Origin: Chloroflexota bacterium
GTDB lineage: Bacteria > Chloroflexota > UBA11872
Reading direction: 5' to 3'
NCBI GenBank assembly: GCA_963667925.1
Contig: OY764080.1
Coordinates: 2,641,310 to 2,705,309, forward strand
Length of the DNA stretch: 64,000 nt
The translations under genes were made by a program, and so were the position numbers. This document shows positions 3,218 to 13,924 of the stretch, piece after piece; the first letter of the stretch is position 1; every line of letters begins with the position of its first letter. Under the pieces are notes generated by a model. The model did no database searches, was not told the DNA's origin, and was given only the letters and a program-made list of their open reading frames with translations.

Positions 3218-3526
3218 CTATCCCGGCGGCGGCGTCTTTACCTCTGCGTCTTTGAACTGCGACTGTAGCTTTGCTCGTTCTTCGTCAGAGATGTACCCGG
3301 AATCACTGGGCCGCGCGCCGGGAAACTTGTAGCCCCCGGCGAGTCCTTCCTTTTCGAGGGCAGGACGACTGCCGCAGCCAGCCACCGCTAGTGTCACCAT
3401 CCCAGCCGCGAGTACACCAAATACTCGGCGCCGGGCAACCAAGGCACTCACAAGCTTCGCTCCTTTGCGACCATGAACTCTCGCGCTCCAAGCCCTGCGC
3501 AATGATAAATCGTCGGCTATCACCAA
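3218..3526 (-). CDS. Small lipoprotein, hypothetical; possibly a distant relative of the 10.7-12.1 kb lipoprotein family
   Basis: Signal peptide with lipobox VAGCGS. The C-terminal SDEERAKLQSQFKDAEVK resembles the IQEQYQAKVKAE motif of the tandem family. The start codon within the ORF is uncertain. Confidence 0.45.
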   Translation of the reverse strand: MVIADDLSLRRAWSARVHGRKGAKLVSALVARRRVFGVLAAGMVTLAVAGCGSRPALEKEGLAGGYKFPGARPSDSGYISDEERAKLQSQFKDAEVKTPPPG

Positions 3527-4990: not shown

Positions 4991-6622
4991 CGAGTGCTTG
5001 GCCGCCGCATCCTACCCAGAACGCCCAAGTCGCTTCGCGGCGTCCGACGACTGGACTCACAGCGTGGTCCCAACTCTCTTCCGGTACCATGCGCGCCAAC
5101 ACAGAGCAAGGCAACGAAGCGAAGGCGTCACATCGATACATCAGCCGGACAGCGCGACGGTTTCGTTCTCCTCGACGGAATCGAATCCACCTACCACCTT
5201 TCGCACCGAGCTTGCGAAGCCACGAAGCACCCAAACAACCCTGTCCTGCCACTAGGCGACCTCCACGAGTGGGACGCCACCCAGGCCCGCCCCTGGTCCT
5301 CGCCGACCGTGATCTGGGACGACGAGGATCGAGTCTTCAAGGCCTGGTACTCCGGCTCCGATGCGGCACCGGAAAAGTGGACCGCCATGGGCTACGCCAC
5401 CAGCCAGGACGGGGTCACGTGGGAGAAACCGCACTTACACCTGTTTGACTGGCGGGGATCCAGCGCAAACAACATCGTTGCCCTTGGCTACGGCCCGGTC
5501 CTCAAGGACAACGCAGAGCCAGACCCGGCCAAGCGCTACAAGATGTTCAAGCGCGGTCCTCGCCTGCGCACGGACGACGCCATCACCGCGCCGGTACCCG
5601 ACTACAAGGGATCTCGGGCCAACTACTCGCCCGACGGCATCCACTGGACCGAAGGGCCGAAGATCGATATCCCCGAGTGGGAAGGCCGCAGCCCCGACTG
5701 CGGAAACCTGATTCGGGACGACCAGGATCCAGACCCATCACGCCGCTTCAAGCTGATCTGGCAGGCCCGGACCCCCTTGAGTCGCCCTGACAAACCCTGG
5801 GGCCGAGCCAAGCTTCTCTGCTACGGCCCGGATATGGTGAACATCCGCAACGCGGATGAAAACCCGCTGCTAGACCCGGATGACGGGTTTGAGTATGAGA
5901 ATCATCACGTCTTGTATGCCCCCTACGGCGGCGCCTGGGTGATGGCGTACGAATACGGCTGGTACGTGCCCAATGGATACGGCATCTACGGCTCCTATTG
6001 CGCGGACATCCGATTGGCCGTCAGCCGCGACGGCCTGCGGTTCGACCGACTTGATGTGCCGCAGCCGGTCATTCCTCGGGGCCGCAACGATGAGTGGGAT
6101 GGCGGCCTGCTGGTCATCGCCGACAAGCCCGCGATCAAGGACGGAACCGTCCACCTGTTCTACGGCGGCAACGGCGAGGAATGGACCAGTTGGCCAGGCG
6201 AGAACACGCCGGCCGAATACCCGTTCGCAAGCACGGGCCAGATTCGCCTATCGCGGCTGGGTGTCGCCTCCCTTCGAGAGGACGGCTTCACCTGCCTGGA
6301 AACTCCGGACCGCGAAGTCCCCGGCTATGCCATCACGCAGACCATTGATCGCAGCGACCCCACAACCCAACTGACCGTCAACGTGAGCGACGTCCGGCAG
6401 AACCGCAGTTGGGTCGAAGTCGAGGTCCTGGACGCAACGACCGAACAACCGTTCGAAGGCTTCGGCCGCGCGGACTGTCGTGATCTGTGCACAGACGGCT
6501 GGCGAGAGCCGGTCAGTTGGCGCGGAGGTGGAATCGGCGACATTCCGGCCAACCAGTTCAAACTCCGTTTCTGGCTTTACGGCGCCGCCCGGCTCTACGC
6601 CTATGGGTTCGACGCGGCGTGA
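4991..6622 (+). CDS. Glycoside-hydrolase-like beta-propeller protein, paralog 2 (5' end uncertain)
   Basis: The ORF is open from 4814. The conserved core starts at ~5230 (PVLPLGDLHEWD...WYSGSDAAP...TSQDGVTWEKP) and aligns with paralog 1. The only canonical in-frame start outside the divergent gene is GTG 4991, so the true start may be non-canonical. Confidence 0.5.
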   Translation, partial: RVLGRRILPRTPKSLRGVRRLDSQRGPNSLPVPCAPTQSKATKRRRHIDTSAGQRDGFVLLDGIESTYHLSHRACEATKHPNNPVLPLGDLHEWDATQARPWSSPTVIWDDEDRVFKAWYSGSDAAPEKWTAMGYATSQDGVTWEKPHLHLFDWRGSSANNIVALGYGPVLKDNAEPDPAKRYKMFKRGPRLRTDDAITAPVPDYKGSRANYSPDGIHWTEGPKIDIPEWEGRSPDCGNLIRDDQDPDPSRRFKLIWQARTPLSRPDKPWGRAKLLCYGPDMVNIRNADENPLLDPDDGFEYENHHVLYAPYGGAWVMAYEYGWYVPNGYGIYGSYCADIRLAVSRDGLRFDRLDVPQPVIPRGRNDEWDGGLLVIADKPAIKDGTVHLFYGGNGEEWTSWPGENTPAEYPFASTGQIRLSRLGVASLREDGFTCLETPDREVPGYAITQTIDRSDPTTQLTVNVSDVRQNRSWVEVEVLDATTEQPFEGFGRADCRDLCTDGWREPVSWRGGGIGDIPANQFKLRFWLYGAARLYAYGFDAA

Positions 6623-7958: not shown

Positions 7959-8978
7959 ATGACCAAGATCTTGGTAACGGTTCCTGAACTCGAAGGCTCT
8001 GCTGACGCGATCGACGAGATCCGCAGTGTCTCGCCCGACCTTGAAATCGAGCAACGGACCTGTCGCTCAAATCCGGAACTCACTGAACTTCTCGGCGATG
8101 CCGAAATCCTTTACACCCTCTGGTTTCCCACCCGGCTTGATCCAAATGCCGGCCTCCGCTGGCTGCAGATGACCTCAACCGGCGTGGACAACAAGCTCTC
8201 GAATCCGGTATTCGATCCGGCGAACGGCGTAACCGTGTCCAGCGCCGCCGGCTGTCACGCCGTGCCGATCGGCGAATACTGCATCTTCGCCATGGGCCTG
8301 TTGGCACGGGGCCTGCTGGGTTTCTACCGCGACCAGCAGCAGAAGGTCCGCAACCGAGCGCACAGCACACTCACCGATCTCACGGGACTGACCGTTGGCA
8401 TCGTGGGTTACGGCCAGATCGGCCGGCACGTGGCCCGACTGTCGCAGGCGTTCAACATGCGAGTCCTGGCCAGCAAGCGCAATCCCGATGTGCGCGAGGT
8501 GAGCGGGATGGACTTTCCAAACGTCGGCGACCCCACGGCCGCGCTACCGGAGAAGATCTTTGGACCGGATGAATTGCCGGAACTGCTGGCCGATGCCGAC
8601 TTCATCGTCTCCACGGTGCCGCTTACCTCCGAGACTGCCGGTCTGTTTGGCGAATCAGCCTTCCAGGCCATGCGACGCGACGCCTATTTCATCAACGTGA
8701 GCCGTGGCGGCGTAGTCGATCACGACGCCCTGGTTCAGGCCCTACAGAGCGACGAGATTCGCGGCGCCTGCCTTGACGTCCTGCACACGGATCCCAATCC
8801 ACTGCCACCGGAGAATCCCCTCTGGGACCTGGACAACGTGCTCATCACCCCGCACGTGTCCGGCAATCGAAACGCCGCCTACATGCGGCGCGCCCAGGAT
8901 CTCTTCATCGAGAATCTGAAGCGCTACCTGGCCGGCGAATCGCTGTTGAATGTGGTGACGCGGGACAAGGGCTACTAG
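7959..8978 (+). CDS. D-isomer-specific 2-hydroxyacid dehydrogenase family protein (NAD-binding)
   Basis: GxGxxG motif VGIVGYGQIGRHVARL; 339 aa; family-typical C-terminal catalytic region. Confidence 0.8.
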   Translation: MTKILVTVPELEGSADAIDEIRSVSPDLEIEQRTCRSNPELTELLGDAEILYTLWFPTRLDPNAGLRWLQMTSTGVDNKLSNPVFDPANGVTVSSAAGCHAVPIGEYCIFAMGLLARGLLGFYRDQQQKVRNRAHSTLTDLTGLTVGIVGYGQIGRHVARLSQAFNMRVLASKRNPDVREVSGMDFPNVGDPTAALPEKIFGPDELPELLADADFIVSTVPLTSETAGLFGESAFQAMRRDAYFINVSRGGVVDHDALVQALQSDEIRGACLDVLHTDPNPLPPENPLWDLDNVLITPHVSGNRNAAYMRRAQDLFIENLKRYLAGESLLNVVTRDKGY

Positions 8979-10648
8979 CTCGGCAGCAGGTCCTCCGGCC
9001 AGTAATACTGGCCGTGGGCGCCGATGTGCGCCTGGCGACCCTCAGGGGCCAAGTCTCGCAGCCTCACGCGTCGCACCTGGCTGGCGCCGGGGCTGCCGTG
9101 CGCGAATTCGACAGCTTGAGCTTCACTCTCAATTGCGATTGTCTTGCCGTCTGCATCCGTGAAGGCATAGAGCACAGCATCCGGCCCGGCGATGAGCGGC
9201 GGTGCCGTCGTCGGCGCAGCCGTGGGCTGGTCCTCGAACGCGCTGGTGAGCTCTCGCGGCGCTTGGTGCGCTGCCAAGAACTCAAGCAGCTTGTTCTGAA
9301 GCCGTCGTGCCTCGTCCGGATGCGCGTCAACAACATTCCGCTCTTGCGACGGATCATCTTGCAGGTCGTAGAGTTCCGACACGTGACCCCGTGGCGACGC
9401 AATCAACTGCCACCGAGCGTCACTGACGGTCAGCGGTTCCGGCAGGTCCTCGCGCCCGACGAATCCATCGTGGTCAGCGCCTCCGATTTGCCCGCTCGTC
9501 AACAGTCCGGGCGGAAACCGGCCACTGAATGCTGTCTCACGGCCCCACTCGGTTTCCCCGTGAACGAGCGGCAATAGCGATTCACCATCGATCCCGTCCG
9601 GCGGTTCCAGGCCGAAGGCGTCCAGCACCGTCGCAAAGATGTCCACGTGCTGGCAGACCTCGCCGCGGTTCGTACCGGCGCCGACGCCTCCCGGGTGCCG
9701 GATGAACATCGGGCAGCGCACGTTCTGGTCGTACAAGCGTCCAAGCTGGCTGCCCGGCTTGCCTTGCAGGTCGTGATCGCCGAGTCCATGGCCGTGATCG
9801 GTGAGCCAGATCACCAGCGTGTCGTCGGCCAGGCCTAGTGCATCCAGCTTCTCGAACAGGTGGCCGAGCCAACGGTCGGTGTAGGTGCAAAGCGCGGCGT
9901 ACGAGGCGCGCACGTGTGCGCGTTCGTCGTCGGTCATATAGGTCCCACGCCCGTAGGCCGGGTAGATGAGCCAGTCGCCGTCGAAGCCCGGCGCCTCATA
10001 GCGCGCCTGATCCGCGGGCGGCGCATCGAACGGCTCGTGAGGGTCCCACATGTCGATGTAGAGGTAGAAATCCTGGTGAGCCGCGTTGCGTTCCAGCCAA
10101 TCCATGGACTCGAGAATCGACTTGCCAGCCATCCATTCGGCCTCATGCCGCCGATCCAGCACGTTTCGCAGGTAGGCCCTCACACCGCGATGGTTCTTGT
10201 GCTTGTGCGGAGCGCACGGTCGCCAGACCTGCCCGGGGTCGGTGCGCCAACTATCGCCATGCTGGCCACGCACCCGCTCCCAGCCCATGAAACCTCGCTG
10301 GAAGTTGTAGCCGGCGGCCGTAAGGCCCGGCGTATCGTGAATCAACATGCTCGGACGGCCAGCCGAATTCAGGATCTCCGCCAGCGTCAAATCCTCACGC
10401 TCCAACGGTTGCCAGGGACGAGTGGGAAACCCAAAGCGGCCGGTCCACAGGTCGTAGCGGGTGGGGATGGTCGGGTATGAGCCGGCGTAGAAACGGTCGA
10501 AGCGCACGGACTGGCGGGCGAGATCATCCAGGTTCGGTGTATGGATGCGCCCGTGGCCGGTGCCGGGATTGGCCCACGGGGCCTCCAGTCCGTAGGCGCC
10601 AACGTGGTCGCGACGAAACGTGTCGTTCATGATCGTGATCACATTCAT
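8975..10648 (-). CDS. Sulfatase-family (alkaline-phosphatase superfamily, PF00884-like) hydrolase with Thr in the nucleophile position
   Basis: Start is ATG 10648, with AAGGAGAG RBS 6 nt upstream (minus strand). TPNLDDLARQSVRF...SYPTIPTRYDLWTGRF aligns to the sulfatase CSPSRAALLTGRY signature with Cys replaced by Thr. No signal peptide. Confidence 0.75.
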   Translation of the reverse strand: MNVITIMNDTFRRDHVGAYGLEAPWANPGTGHGRIHTPNLDDLARQSVRFDRFYAGSYPTIPTRYDLWTGRFGFPTRPWQPLEREDLTLAEILNSAGRPSMLIHDTPGLTAAGYNFQRGFMGWERVRGQHGDSWRTDPGQVWRPCAPHKHKNHRGVRAYLRNVLDRRHEAEWMAGKSILESMDWLERNAAHQDFYLYIDMWDPHEPFDAPPADQARYEAPGFDGDWLIYPAYGRGTYMTDDERAHVRASYAALCTYTDRWLGHLFEKLDALGLADDTLVIWLTDHGHGLGDHDLQGKPGSQLGRLYDQNVRCPMFIRHPGGVGAGTNRGEVCQHVDIFATVLDAFGLEPPDGIDGESLLPLVHGETEWGRETAFSGRFPPGLLTSGQIGGADHDGFVGREDLPEPLTVSDARWQLIASPRGHVSELYDLQDDPSQERNVVDAHPDEARRLQNKLLEFLAAHQAPRELTSAFEDQPTAAPTTAPPLIAGPDAVLYAFTDADGKTIAIESEAQAVEFAHGSPGASQVRRVRLRDLAPEGRQAHIGAHGQYYWPEDLLPS

Positions 10649-10714
10649 AGCGACCTCTCCTTTTGGCCACACAAGGCCTCGCGGCGCGCGGTGGTTTCCC
10701 TGTAGACCAAGCGC

Positions 10715-10972
10715 TTATTTCTTTGCGCCGGCTTCCTGGCTGGACACCTTGGCCTGATACTGCTCCTGGAGTTTCATCAAGTCTTCGTGGGTGGCGGTCT
10801 TCCCACCACCGCCGGCTCTTGCGCCCCGCACTTCATTGATTGCCCGGTCGCCGCTGATCTTGTAGTCAAAGTCGCCGCCGCAGCCCGCGAGGAGTGCGCC
10901 GACCAGCGCGGCCAGAATCGCTACACGTCCAGTCAGGGCGCCACTGAGGCTTGGCTTTCTGTTCCCAGACAT
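10715..10972 (-). CDS. Small lipoprotein, tandem family member 1
   Basis: 85 aa. Signal peptide with lipobox LLAGC, then GGDFDYKISGDR ... HEDLMKLQEQYQAKV. Confidence 0.6.
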   Translation of the reverse strand: MSGNRKPSLSGALTGRVAILAALVGALLAGCGGDFDYKISGDRAINEVRGARAGGGGKTATHEDLMKLQEQYQAKVSSQEAGAKK

Positions 10973-10993
10973 GGCCGCCTACCCCCGATCGCC

Positions 10994-11254
10994 TTACTTC
11001 TTGCCAGCCTCCGCCTCAAGCTTAGCCTTGTATTGCTCCTGGATGCTCATGAGGTTCTCGTGCGACGCGGTTGACGCTCCGCTGAATTGCCCGGTGTTGG
11101 CACGAGTCTCGCCCTGAAGGCGGTCGCCGCTGGTCTTGTAGTCGAAATCACCTCCACAACTCGCGACGAGCGAGGCAATCACGGCCGCCGCAAGCAATGC
11201 CCCAACCCTACGAAGCCTGCGACGGACGTACGGCTGCACCTGGCGCATCGTCAC
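10994..11254 (-). CDS. Small lipoprotein, tandem family member 2
   Basis: 86 aa. LVASCGGDFDYKTSGDR ... SHENLMSIQEQYKAKLEAEAGKK. Confidence 0.6.
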   Translation of the reverse strand: MTMRQVQPYVRRRLRRVGALLAAAVIASLVASCGGDFDYKTSGDRLQGETRANTGQFSGASTASHENLMSIQEQYKAKLEAEAGKK

Positions 11255-11271
11255 AATGGCATCCCTTCCTC

Positions 11272-11553
11272 CTACCGCTGCCCAGTCTCGGCCTTCAGCT
11301 TGGCCTGGTACTGCTCCTGGATGCTCTTCATTTTCTCGTCGGAGGCCGTGGATGCTCCGCCCAGGCCAGCTGCGTCCGGGTTGTTGAACTCGCTGGGACC
11401 AACGTTCTCCTCGCTCGTCCGGTCACCGCTGGTCTTGAATTCGAAATCCCCGCCGCAGCCCGCCAGCAGCGAGGCGGCCACGAGCGCCAAGAGGGGCGCC
11501 CGACGAAGCCATCGCCAGAGGCGCTGCAGTGTGGCTGGCTGACGCACGATCAA
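11272..11553 (-). CDS. Small lipoprotein, tandem family member 3
   Basis: 93 aa. LLAGCGGDFEFKTSGDR ... SDEKMKSIQEQYQAKLKAETGQR. Confidence 0.6.
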   Translation of the reverse strand: MIVRQPATLQRLWRWLRRAPLLALVAASLLAGCGGDFEFKTSGDRTSEENVGPSEFNNPDAAGLGGASTASDEKMKSIQEQYQAKLKAETGQR

Positions 11554-11571
11554 ACGGCCCCCTAGTCTGAC

Positions 11572-11826
11572 CTACTTCTGCCCACTCTCGGCCTTCACTT
11601 TAGCCTGATACTGCTCCTGAATGCTTAGCAAATTTTCATGAGACGTTGTCGAGGCGCCGTCAAAGTCCGAAATCCCACCCCGATCTTCGCCGTCGATTCG
11701 GTCGCCGCTGGTCTTGTATTCGAAGTCCCCGCCGCAGCCTGCCAGCAACGAGCCGACGACGAGCGCCAAAAGGGGCGCGCCACGAAGACATCGCCAGAGG
11801 CGCTGCCACACGTGAGGTTGGCGCAT
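11572..11826 (-). CDS. Small lipoprotein, tandem family member 4
   Basis: 84 aa. LLAGCGGDFEYKTSGDRIDGEDRGG ... SHENLLSIQEQYQAKVKAESGQK. Confidence 0.6.
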   Translation of the reverse strand: MRQPHVWQRLWRCLRGAPLLALVVGSLLAGCGGDFEYKTSGDRIDGEDRGGISDFDGASTTSHENLLSIQEQYQAKVKAESGQK

Positions 11827-11850
11827 TACCCAACGCCTCCCATGTCGGAC

Positions 11851-12090
11851 TTACTTCTGGCCACTTTCGGCCTTCACCTTTGCTTGATACTGCTCCTGGA
11901 TACTCAACAGATTCTCGTGAGAAGTCGTCGAGGCGCCATCCCAGTCAGCAATCCCGCTCCGGTCTCCGCCGTCGATGCGGTCACCGCTGGTCTTGTATTC
12001 AAAGTCGCCACCACACGCCGCCAGCAGCCCGGCGAACAGTCCTACAGCCACCGCAGCACACCCTCGCCTGATTGACGAACTGCCAAGCAT
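11851..12090 (-). CDS. Small lipoprotein, tandem family member 5
   Basis: 79 aa. The mature region is near-identical to member 4 (CGGDFEYKTSGDRIDGGDRSG...SHENLLSIQEQYQAKVKAESGQK). Confidence 0.6.
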   Translation of the reverse strand: MLGSSSIRRGCAAVAVGLFAGLLAACGGDFEYKTSGDRIDGGDRSGIADWDGASTTSHENLLSIQEQYQAKVKAESGQK

Positions 12091-12176
12091 CTACCCCACC
12101 TACGGCTCGCGGCAACTGGCTCCGGCCCGATGCTGGACCGTTTCGAGGCTCCGCGATCCACATATCACCGTACAGC

Positions 12177-12209
12177 ATTCGGGCGCGGTCTTGCAGACCG
12201 CGCCCGAAT
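12177..12209. terminator. Hairpin attcgggcgcggtct-tgc-agaccgcgcccgaat downstream of SBP gene 12246-13760 (a copy of the 13854-13886 hairpin)
   Basis: 14-bp perfect stem; no clean U-tract on the minus strand, so it could also be a protein-binding palindrome. Confidence 0.5.
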
Positions 12210-12245
12210 GCTTGTACTCCGTTTTGGCGCTGACGACCTAACCGA

Positions 12246-13760
12246 CTAGGCCGTGCGCCCCCAGCGCTCGATACGCTGGTTCAGCAAGTCCAGGTCCTGC
12301 TGAAGGATGCGGTCACCCTCGGTTACGGCGTTTTCGATGGCCTCTTCCACCGATGCGTCGCCGGTCATGGCCGTGTGAGCAATCCCGCGCCAGGCCAACC
12401 ACTCCAGCTGGTTGGGGTGGTAGCCCTGCCAGGTCCGGAACTCGCCGCGCACGAAGGTGGCCAGCAGGTCCTGCCGCTCTGGCGGGGCCGCCAGGTTCTC
12501 CGGCGACTCCAGTGCGTCCCACCGGCAGGGCAGGAAACCACGGTCAATCGCGGCCCGCGCCTGCATCTCGGGGCCCGCCATCCAGACGAGGAAGTCTACG
12601 GCTGCCTCAACCACGCCCTGGCGTTGCGCCGAGTCGAGCACGTAGTGCCCCTGGTTGGTGCGGTGTACGGCCACCGTGCCAGTCACGTCACCCTTCGGCT
12701 GCGGCGCCAGCGACCAGCGGAAGCGGTCGCCGATGCCGATCACGGCGTTGCCCTTGGCGTCGCCGCGGCGCAACTCGGCCCCCACCTTGCCGGCCGTGAA
12801 GAGGTCGCCAAACTCACCCGCCAACTCGCGCTGCGCATCGGTCGGCGCCGAGACCTCGTGCTTGTGAATGAGGTCGACCCCGAACTTGAAGCCCTGATCG
12901 CCACCGTCGTCAAACTGACTGGTGTGCGTGCCGTCAGGCGAGATGAACTGCTTGCCACCGAAGCCCCAGGCAATCGGCGTCCAGAAGTGGATGTCGCCAC
13001 CACCTGAGATTCGGGTACCCCAGATTCCGTTGTCCGGGTCGGTGGACTGCTTGGCCGCCTCGAGCCACTCGTTGCTGTAGGTCCAATCGGCCGACGGCTC
13101 GGGCACGCCGTACTGTTCATACAGATCAATGTTGTAGTAGTGACCGCTCACGTTGCCCTGGTAGGGAAGGCCGAAGGCAGCACCCTGCCACGTGTCCACG
13201 AACGGGTAGTCGAGATCGTAGTTGACCGTGTAGGAGTCCGGCTCGAAAATCTGCTCGGCCCCATCAAAGGTGGGGTGTCGGTCCAGCACGTCGTTGATCT
13301 GGGTAAACGATTCCTGGTGGGCGCCGAAGAAGCTCCACTCGAGCAGAGCAGCGGCCGGCGCGCTACCCGCCGCGATGCGAATCGCGAACGTCTCGTAGAA
13401 CAGGTCGGCCTGCGGTGTGAACTTGATCCTGATATCGGGCCGTGCCTTCGCGAAGTTGGCGAGCGCCCAGGTGGTCGACTTGCCGCGCACGCCAGAGACG
13501 TGGTCGCTGATGAACTCGAACTCCACCGTCTTGGACTGAGGCGCCGCCATCGCCTGTGTGGCGACCTTCTCAGCAGCGACCGGAGCTTCCTTGGTCACCG
13601 CTTTGACGACTTCCTCTTGAACCGCCTGCGTGACGCTCTTCTCGACGGCCTCAGTCTCGCCACAAGCAGCCAACGTGGCCGCGCCCGCGGCGCCGATGCC
13701 AAGTGCCGAAGTCACCTTGAGGAATCGCCGTCTCGATATGTTCAGGATCATTTGCCTCAA
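12246..13760 (-). CDS. ABC transporter substrate-binding lipoprotein (TAT signal), paralog A
   Basis: 504 aa. SRRRFLK TAT motif plus lipobox LAAC. FEFISDHVSGVRGKSTTWALANF core is ~75% identical to the adjacent paralog. No permease genes adjacent. Confidence 0.8.
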   Translation of the reverse strand: MRQMILNISRRRFLKVTSALGIGAAGAATLAACGETEAVEKSVTQAVQEEVVKAVTKEAPVAAEKVATQAMAAPQSKTVEFEFISDHVSGVRGKSTTWALANFAKARPDIRIKFTPQADLFYETFAIRIAAGSAPAAALLEWSFFGAHQESFTQINDVLDRHPTFDGAEQIFEPDSYTVNYDLDYPFVDTWQGAAFGLPYQGNVSGHYYNIDLYEQYGVPEPSADWTYSNEWLEAAKQSTDPDNGIWGTRISGGGDIHFWTPIAWGFGGKQFISPDGTHTSQFDDGGDQGFKFGVDLIHKHEVSAPTDAQRELAGEFGDLFTAGKVGAELRRGDAKGNAVIGIGDRFRWSLAPQPKGDVTGTVAVHRTNQGHYVLDSAQRQGVVEAAVDFLVWMAGPEMQARAAIDRGFLPCRWDALESPENLAAPPERQDLLATFVRGEFRTWQGYHPNQLEWLAWRGIAHTAMTGDASVEEAIENAVTEGDRILQQDLDLLNQRIERWGRTA

Positions 13761-13853
13761 CCCTCCCTGCGTGTCAGACCGAATACGTAACAGCGCTTCG
13801 AGCTCAAACTATATAACAACGAATGAGGCCCAGCGAAGTTGCGTTATGACAGC

Positions 13854-13886
13854 ATTCGGGCGCGGTCTACAAGACCGCGCCCGAAT
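13854..13886. terminator. Hairpin attcgggcgcggtct-acaag-agaccgcgcccgaat downstream of SBP gene 13925-15469
   Basis: Perfect inverted repeat; its stem is identical to the copy at 12177-12209. Confidence 0.5.
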
Positions 13887-13924
13887 AGCCGTGCGCCGCG
13901 TAGGCGCTTACGACGAACGAATAA

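Follow-up and report, generated by a model that had tools for sequence, protein, structure and literature searches.

A tandem array of five small lipoprotein genes lies at positions 10715-12090, on the minus strand, of a 64,000-nucleotide stretch of DNA from a Chloroflexota bacterium (assembly GCA_963667925.1, contig OY764080.1; the whole stretch is referred to here as the window). The array is read as an old, stably inherited set of five genes for undescribed, genus-confined micro-lipoproteins whose products may act as tethered, partner-binding peptides, and this overall reading is given a probability of roughly 0.55. The protein family is undescribed, and the locus itself is of an ordinary kind, namely a lineage-specific tandem lipoprotein array. 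A first-pass annotation of this DNA had described five tandem minus-strand lipoprotein paralogues, and this description is correct to the nucleotide: five co-oriented open reading frames (ORFs) are present with exactly those boundaries, each with a lipobox.

11851..12090, minus strand: gene 1, 79 amino acids, subtype A (...ADWDG variant) with an A-type signal peptide, from the ORF and its lipobox
11572..11826, minus strand: gene 2, 84 amino acids, a B-type 5′ region and signal peptide joined to a subtype-A mature part (...SDFDG variant), from sliding nucleotide identity
11272..11553, minus strand: gene 3, 93 amino acids, subtype B with a linker insertion of 8 residues (NNPDAAGL)
10994..11254, minus strand: gene 4, 86 amino acids, a C-type signal peptide joined to a subtype-D mature part, from comparison with the five-subtype arrays of G006, G009, G021 and G001
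10715..10972, minus strand: gene 5, 85 amino acids, subtype E with a Gly-rich linker and a ...GAKK end

The precursors thus range from 79 to 93 amino acids, and orthologues support a probable GTG start at 11547 for gene 3 and a probable ATG start at 11248 for gene 4. The codon of the predicted lipidated Cys of gene 1 is 12015-12013, and orthologues of this gene occupy the first slot of the array in 10 related genomes. The genes are separated by spacers of 17-24 nt, and each is preceded by a GGAGG/GGGGG-type ribosome-binding site. That they are real genes and not chance ORFs follows from the existence of about 98 homologue clusters and from the ratio of non-synonymous to synonymous substitution rates (dN/dS) between orthologues, which gives the ORFs codon-level support in the form of purifying selection.

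All five products begin with a positively charged n-region, followed by a hydrophobic core and a lipobox of the form L-(L/V)-A-(G/A/S)-C. Across these copies and about 90 homologues, the lipobox (L-(L/V)-(A/T)-(G/A/S)-C) is found at residues 22-33, and its Cys is invariant. The genome, a single 3.55-Mb contig, encodes two copies of Lgt (PF01790, 183 and 149 bits) and LspA (PF01252, 94 bits), and Omp85/BamA was not found in it. With these two enzymes present and no Omp85 found, the array products, judged from their sequences, should be signal peptidase II-type lipoproteins that are anchored through Cys on the outer face of the sole (cytoplasmic) membrane. The mature peptides, of about 54-61 residues, consist of three parts: a near-invariant 12-residue juxtamembrane motif, GGDF(D/E)(Y/F)K(T/I)SGDR; a linker of 14-22 residues that differs by subtype; and a polar C-terminal helix of about 19 residues, S-H-E-x-L-x-x-(I/L)-Q-E-Q-Y-(Q/K)-A-K. 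In agreement with the conserved ends that had been noticed earlier, the 23 invariant columns of the five-paralogue alignment, which include CGGDF, K, SGDR and QEQY.AK, cluster after the Cys (CGGDF.(Y/F)K.SGDR) and near the C-terminus (QEQY.AK). The last residue is variable across the family (K, R, P, T, G, Q or S) and is K in most copies. In an AlphaFold2 model built from an 87-sequence alignment (mean predicted local distance difference test score, pLDDT, of 68.9), residues 1-32 are without regular structure (pLDDT 56-63) and residues 33-51 form a helix (pLDDT 82-88). This helix is hydrophilic and weakly amphipathic, with a negative mean hydrophobicity and a hydrophobic moment (μH) of 0.14-0.26. 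These properties make a pore-former, a classical coiled coil or a helix lying in the membrane plane unlikely. Three invariant residues, Q, Y and K, are spaced about one turn apart on the helix and could serve as a binding face.

To compare the copies, mature parts were taken from 12 genomes. They fall into five sharp subtypes in the constant order A-B-C-D-E, and the complete set is present in G006, G009, G021 and G001. Subtype A comes in two old variants, ...ADWDG and ...SDFDG, and the genome studied here (G000) holds A, A′, B, D and E and is without C. Paralogue copy number in related genomes, a point raised in the first-pass annotation, does vary through gain and loss of subtypes, whereas the subtype order stays fixed from A to E. 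In the maximum-likelihood tree, it is subtype and not genome of origin that groups the copies (support of 100/100 for B, 96/87 for C, 90/85 for E and 98/98 for A and B jointly), and the subtype labels require four changes on this tree, which is the minimum possible and was matched by 0 of 200 shuffles. Nei-Gojobori comparisons between orthologues gave the following values.

Subtype A: dN/dS 0.047, dS 0.84
Subtype B: dN/dS 0.088, dS 0.24
Subtype D: dN/dS 0.085, dS 0.67
Subtype E: dN/dS 0.131, dS 0.57
Subtype C: dN/dS about 0.8, dS 0.07

In subtypes A, B, D and E, constraint is strongest over the 13 residues that follow the anchor (dN/dS of 0.00-0.04), followed by the helix (0.03-0.14) and the middle segment (0.14-0.18); only in subtype C does the middle exceed 1, with very few changes. 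The low ratios between orthologues indicate that the middle is subtype-specific and not diversifying, and the purifying selection on each subtype implies that the subtypes are non-redundant. A similar distinction applies to the pair formed by genes 1 and 2 (A and A′). Their mature parts are identical at 50 of 54 positions, and their complete precursors are just 72% identical because the signal peptides differ. Two near-identical copies in the array had been attributed to a recent duplication; for this pair, 24 of 34 synonymous sites differ, which is saturation, as compared with 5 of 128 non-synonymous sites (dN of 0.04), and both A variants are also found in other species (G012, P0017, P0029). 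At the sequence level, genes 1 and 2 are instead an old pair that has been kept near-identical by selection.

The array nevertheless changes in composition, and the segment that encodes the juxtamembrane motif is where this occurs. Gene 2 shares 83-93% nucleotide identity with gene 3 across the upstream region and signal peptide, and 76-93% with gene 1 from the motif-coding segment onward. The switch point of this mosaic is inside the segment encoding GGDFEYKTSGDR, and in the nucleotide alignment the motif-coding segment is the most identical stretch among all five units.

11698..11733, minus strand: motif-coding segment, shown for gene 2, encoding GGDFEYKTSGDR (dN/dS of 0.00-0.09), with an equivalent directly 3′ of the Cys codon in each copy

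On this nucleotide pattern, gene 2 has the make-up expected if B and A had undergone unequal crossover with the gain of a unit. Gene 4, with its C-type signal peptide and D-type mature part, is the reciprocal, deletion-type product, in which the C mature module was removed. The gene 4-type mosaic is common to G016, G020 and G010. In addition, a D-type signal peptide is joined to an A-type mature part in G012, in which D has been replaced by A, and the array of G004 is without B. The changes in the array thus arise by unequal crossing-over or gene conversion within the motif-coding segment, which acts as a recombination site. Since the signal peptides are removed on maturation, the lasting effect of this turnover is only on which mature modules are made and at what dose. 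In one further genome (G013; locus L037, contig C6, near position 6599), the first array gene is frameshifted directly after CGGDFDYK and runs into the frame of the next gene; this copy is likely a pseudogene or an assembly error.

The family has no described relatives. Against Pfam, NCBIfam, PHROGs and PADLOC there were no above-threshold matches, and the weak ones (the MltD lipid attachment motif, LptM and TrbK) cover the signal peptide only. The TrbK entry-exclusion lipoprotein (TIGR04359) was rejected on these grounds, as its match reached 15.6 bits, below the cut-off of 23, and was confined to residues 17-34, the signal peptide. Whether the proteins fall into a known family had been raised at first pass, and the profile searches found no described domain: a profile of the mature part, built from 87 sequences, gave a best E value of 0.67 against PDB sequences, which is chance level, and retrieved just 14 proteins at E <= 0.001 from 1.84 billion protein cluster representatives, two of them long proteins matched through a repeated 17-residue stretch. 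A word-indexed search returned 98 homologue clusters of 64-115 residues, all annotated as "hypothetical"; those with a named source come from Chloroflexi/Chloroflexota metagenome-assembled genomes (MAGs), except for one MAG labelled Gammaproteobacteria. Similarly, a pattern scan of 185,579 species genomes found 17 loci, every one in a Chloroflexota MAG. A feature search of the ESM Atlas gave only clusters of unnamed small proteins, the nearest named entries being Rz1 and RzoQ at 0.83, a generic lipoprotein likeness, and a literature search found no description of the family. Within the same Chloroflexota genus, represented by sponge and marine MAGs, 20 of 23 species have the profile. It was found in none of the 37 genomes searched outside the genus, namely 13 of other genera of the family, 19 of the sister family and 5 of other families of the class. 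RNA and DNA runs containing the locus are likewise labelled as sponge or marine metagenomes. Three genome-reduced congeners (2.0-2.1 Mb) are without any family member, and for this reason the family is taken to be accessory and not a core component of the envelope; its loss in these species suggests an accessory, niche-linked role.

Based on these features, the mature peptides would hang from the outer face of the membrane by the lipid-modified Cys and would serve as lipid-tethered ligands or adaptors, folding on binding a conserved extracytoplasmic partner near the membrane surface. Candidate partners may include the loops of membrane proteins, neighbouring lipoprotein solute-binding proteins (SBPs), the paralogues themselves or a component of the wall. 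This model is put forward because the peptides combine a lipid anchor with the lack of a hydrophobic core, are under constraint from end to end, which is strongest by the membrane, and occur as several non-redundant subtypes. As a specific mechanism, folding upon binding to a conserved membrane-surface partner is proposed tentatively, at somewhat less than even odds. A more elaborate form, in which A-E would be a genus-specific matched set of disordered lipid-tethered ligands, each subtype for a different receptor (orphan SBPs, a membrane transporter or a sponge surface factor), with the motif as a docking or sorting signal of a kind undescribed in monoderms that is shared with an unrelated micro-lipoprotein at genome position 681350 (see below), is speculative and considered unlikely.

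The array is embedded in a conserved neighbourhood.

12246..13760, minus strand: SBP1, the upstream neighbour, a Tat-type lipoprotein solute-binding protein (PF13416)
12175..12211, minus strand: a 16-bp, GC-rich hairpin without a U-tract, between SBP1 and gene 1
8975..10648, minus strand: the downstream neighbour, a sulfatase-fold gene (PF00884) without a signal peptide, 66 nt past gene 5

In 11 of 11 loci, the same order is kept: an aldo-keto reductase gene, SBP2, SBP1, the array and the sulfatase-fold gene, followed by converging genes for a 2-hydroxyacid dehydrogenase and an enolase-superfamily protein. Of the congeners without the array, G005, G008, G019 and G018 are without the whole locus, and in G015 the contig ends directly after SBP2. 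Phyletic pattern can therefore not tell the array apart from its neighbours. Orthologues of the sulfatase-fold gene (75-100% identical) are confined to array-carrying genomes, with just paralogues at about 40% identity in other genera. A scan of 10500-12400 for promoter and terminator consensus sequences found none, there is no terminator-like site between gene 5 and the sulfatase-fold gene, and the two are probably co-transcribed, as judged from this layout. The hairpin is near-invariant in 10 species, whereas the flanking DNA varies; a 160-nt fold that contains it has a predicted energy of -76.5 kcal/mol (z = -4.3), and Rfam has no family for the region. An equivalent hairpin is located after SBP2 (~13790-13900), such that one follows each SBP gene. 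The hairpin is probably an mRNA 3′-end, a stabiliser or a partial terminator of an abundant SBP transcript that lets some read-through pass. In four RNA libraries of sponge or marine origin, assembled contigs that derive from relatives (88-95% identity) cover stretches of genes 1, 3, 4 and 5, and one of them spans SBP1 to gene 1. The word depth of these contigs is 0-7 over the array (2-7 in the covered parts), about 16 over SBP1 and 40-65 over SBP2, which fits transcription of the array at a modest level, without being proof of it.

More distant relatives are found elsewhere. Divergent single-copy members are present on short metagenome contigs (P0100 and P0103), the latter flanked by a tRNA synthetase gene (PF00579) and a histidine-biosynthesis gene. 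At a separate locus in four congeners (G004, G013, G006 and G009; L058-L061), a single-copy distant branch reads C-EAS-DDFDFRGSGDR ... EKIQEGYAK; it is not present in the genome studied here, and the G004 copy (C1:2925690-2925890) adjoins a PhyH-type dioxygenase gene. In addition, a 68-residue lipoprotein encoded at 681350-681556 of the genome, on the plus strand (L006:1477-1683), has only the motif CGGEFEFKPSG in common with the array family (hhalign, 91.7% over 12 columns). Its gene adjoins one for a dual-specificity phosphatase. A genome-wide motif scan matched six proteins only, namely the five array products and this lipoprotein. The latter is kept in most congeners, including array-less ones, so the motif may predate the array or act as a functional signal in its own right.

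A second genus-restricted family of micro-lipoproteins (74-80 residues) was also observed, with a twin-arginine-like signal peptide (S-R-R-x-V-L-K), a motif G-G-Y-x-F-P-x-x-R and a helix S-x-E-E-R-x-K-L-Q. It is present in 20 of 23 congeners and in 0 of 17 genomes of other genera, and its members here are as follows.

3218-3526 of the window, minus strand: small lipoprotein
326453-326932 of the genome, plus strand (L075:2454-2933): tandem pair
1892753-1893163 of the genome, minus strand: further member

The lipoprotein at 3218-3526 had been suggested as a possible distant member of the array family. With full precursors, hhalign gives 95.6%, carried by the signal peptide. With mature parts only, the probability falls to 16-30% over 14-16 columns, which cover only the start of the helix, S-x-E-x4-(L/I)-Q-x-Q-(Y/F), and a search of the genome with the hidden Markov model of the array family does not recover this protein. 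At the level of sequence comparison, the likeness is not significant once the signal peptides are removed.

Several observations weigh against the reading of the array as a stably inherited set of tethered, partner-binding peptides. Lipidation and export of the products are predicted from sequence, and the sole complex prediction, of mature A+B+D+E, scored 0.01, a value that carries no weight in either direction. Constraint is unequal among the subtypes, as subtype C has a dN/dS of ~0.8 on very few substitutions, and C has been lost in several species (this genome, G016, G020 and G010). The divergent relatives sit in unrelated neighbourhoods, beside housekeeping genes, and their context gives no functional clue. 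Finally, the RNA signal consists of unstranded assembled contigs of relatives at low depth, with possible DNA carry-over. Among the other readings, the least improbable, although still unlikely, is that the five subtypes are subunits of a hetero-oligomeric envelope complex that is assembled through the C-terminal helices. In its favor, the paralogues are non-redundant, come in a fixed set and order and are each kept by purifying selection, and every subtype has a single conserved helix with an invariant Q-x-x-Y-x-x-K face. However, this 19-residue helix is short, polar and weakly amphipathic, and the loss or replacement of subtypes (C in the four genomes just named, B in G004 and D by A in G012) is hard to square with an obligate stoichiometry. 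An accessory or docking role of the peptides for the adjacent orphan lipoproteins SBP1 and SBP2 is improbable, and no precedent is known. Here, the location of the array immediately downstream of SBP1 at all 11 loci, the RNA-library contig that bridges SBP1 and gene 1, and the position of the 3218-3526 lipoprotein gene beside an SBP gene both in the window and in G018 can be cited in favor. The adjacency weighs little, however, as the entire 15-kb locus is syntenic; a conserved hairpin stands between SBP1 and the array, and neither the divergent family members nor the second small-lipoprotein pair are beside SBP genes.

The first-pass annotation had favored a diversifying surface family with a fast-evolving middle (adhesins, receptor masks, immunity proteins or ligand scavengers). 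The paralogues are indeed in tandem and differ in their middles, the peptides could be exposed in a monoderm envelope, and the organisms are host-associated. Yet the middle is conserved between orthologues (dN/dS of about 0.15), the copies group by subtype across species, and an elevated ratio is seen in subtype C alone, on a handful of changes. There is no PADLOC or PHROG match. None of the four roles found supporting evidence, and this explanation is quite improbable. Cases of lineage-restricted tandem lipoprotein paralogues in a monoderm, host-associated bacterium do exist: the lpl cluster of Staphylococcus aureus (νSaα island, DUF576) consists of such genes, with a copy number that varies between strains (PMC4470592, PMC5187369). 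The resemblance ends there, as Lpl proteins are folded and of ~260 residues, whereas the array peptides have 54-61 residues, one helix and no globular domain; the two have no sequence relation (no Pfam match), and the array subtypes are orthologous and conserved across species. Two further comparisons rest on the size of the peptides and are both very doubtful. Lpp (Braun lipoprotein) has a mature length of 58 residues, close to the 54-61 residues found here, and the array products likewise are very small helical lipoproteins with an N-terminal lipid anchor and, in most copies, a C-terminal Lys, through which they could be tethered to peptidoglycan. Such a tether was rejected: there is no match to Pfam LPP or to NCBIfam, the short, polar helix is not a heptad coiled coil, and the terminal Lys is not conserved, the last residue being R, P, T, G or Q in subtype B, some E copies and the divergent members. 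Moreover, no Omp85 and so no outer membrane to tether was found, the motif beside the membrane has no counterpart in Lpp, and the family is dispensable in three congeners. The ecnAB locus, in turn, encodes tandem paralogous small lipoproteins with a helix, and the array could by this likeness be an entericidin-like toxin/antidote set that acts on the membrane. EcnA and EcnB (PF08085) are an amphipathic, membrane-active pair of ~25 residues; the array helix is instead polar, with a low hydrophobic moment, five conserved subtypes are unlike a two-component logic, and there was no PF08085 match at E <= 1.

As a system, the array is not of a new kind, and it has as yet no link to host interaction, defence or transport. 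What it offers is a complete family that can be defined in terms of its subtypes, motif, evolutionary dynamics and genomic setting, from a dominant group of uncultured sponge symbionts. Small proteins, and especially small lipoproteins, are systematically overlooked in the annotation of MAGs or entered there as "hypothetical". The locus is also a clean natural case of the shuffling of signal peptide and mature part as modules, through crossover at a conserved coding motif. Lastly, strong constraint on a peptide without a globular fold points to binding of a conserved partner at the cell surface, for which synthetic peptides offer a means of search.

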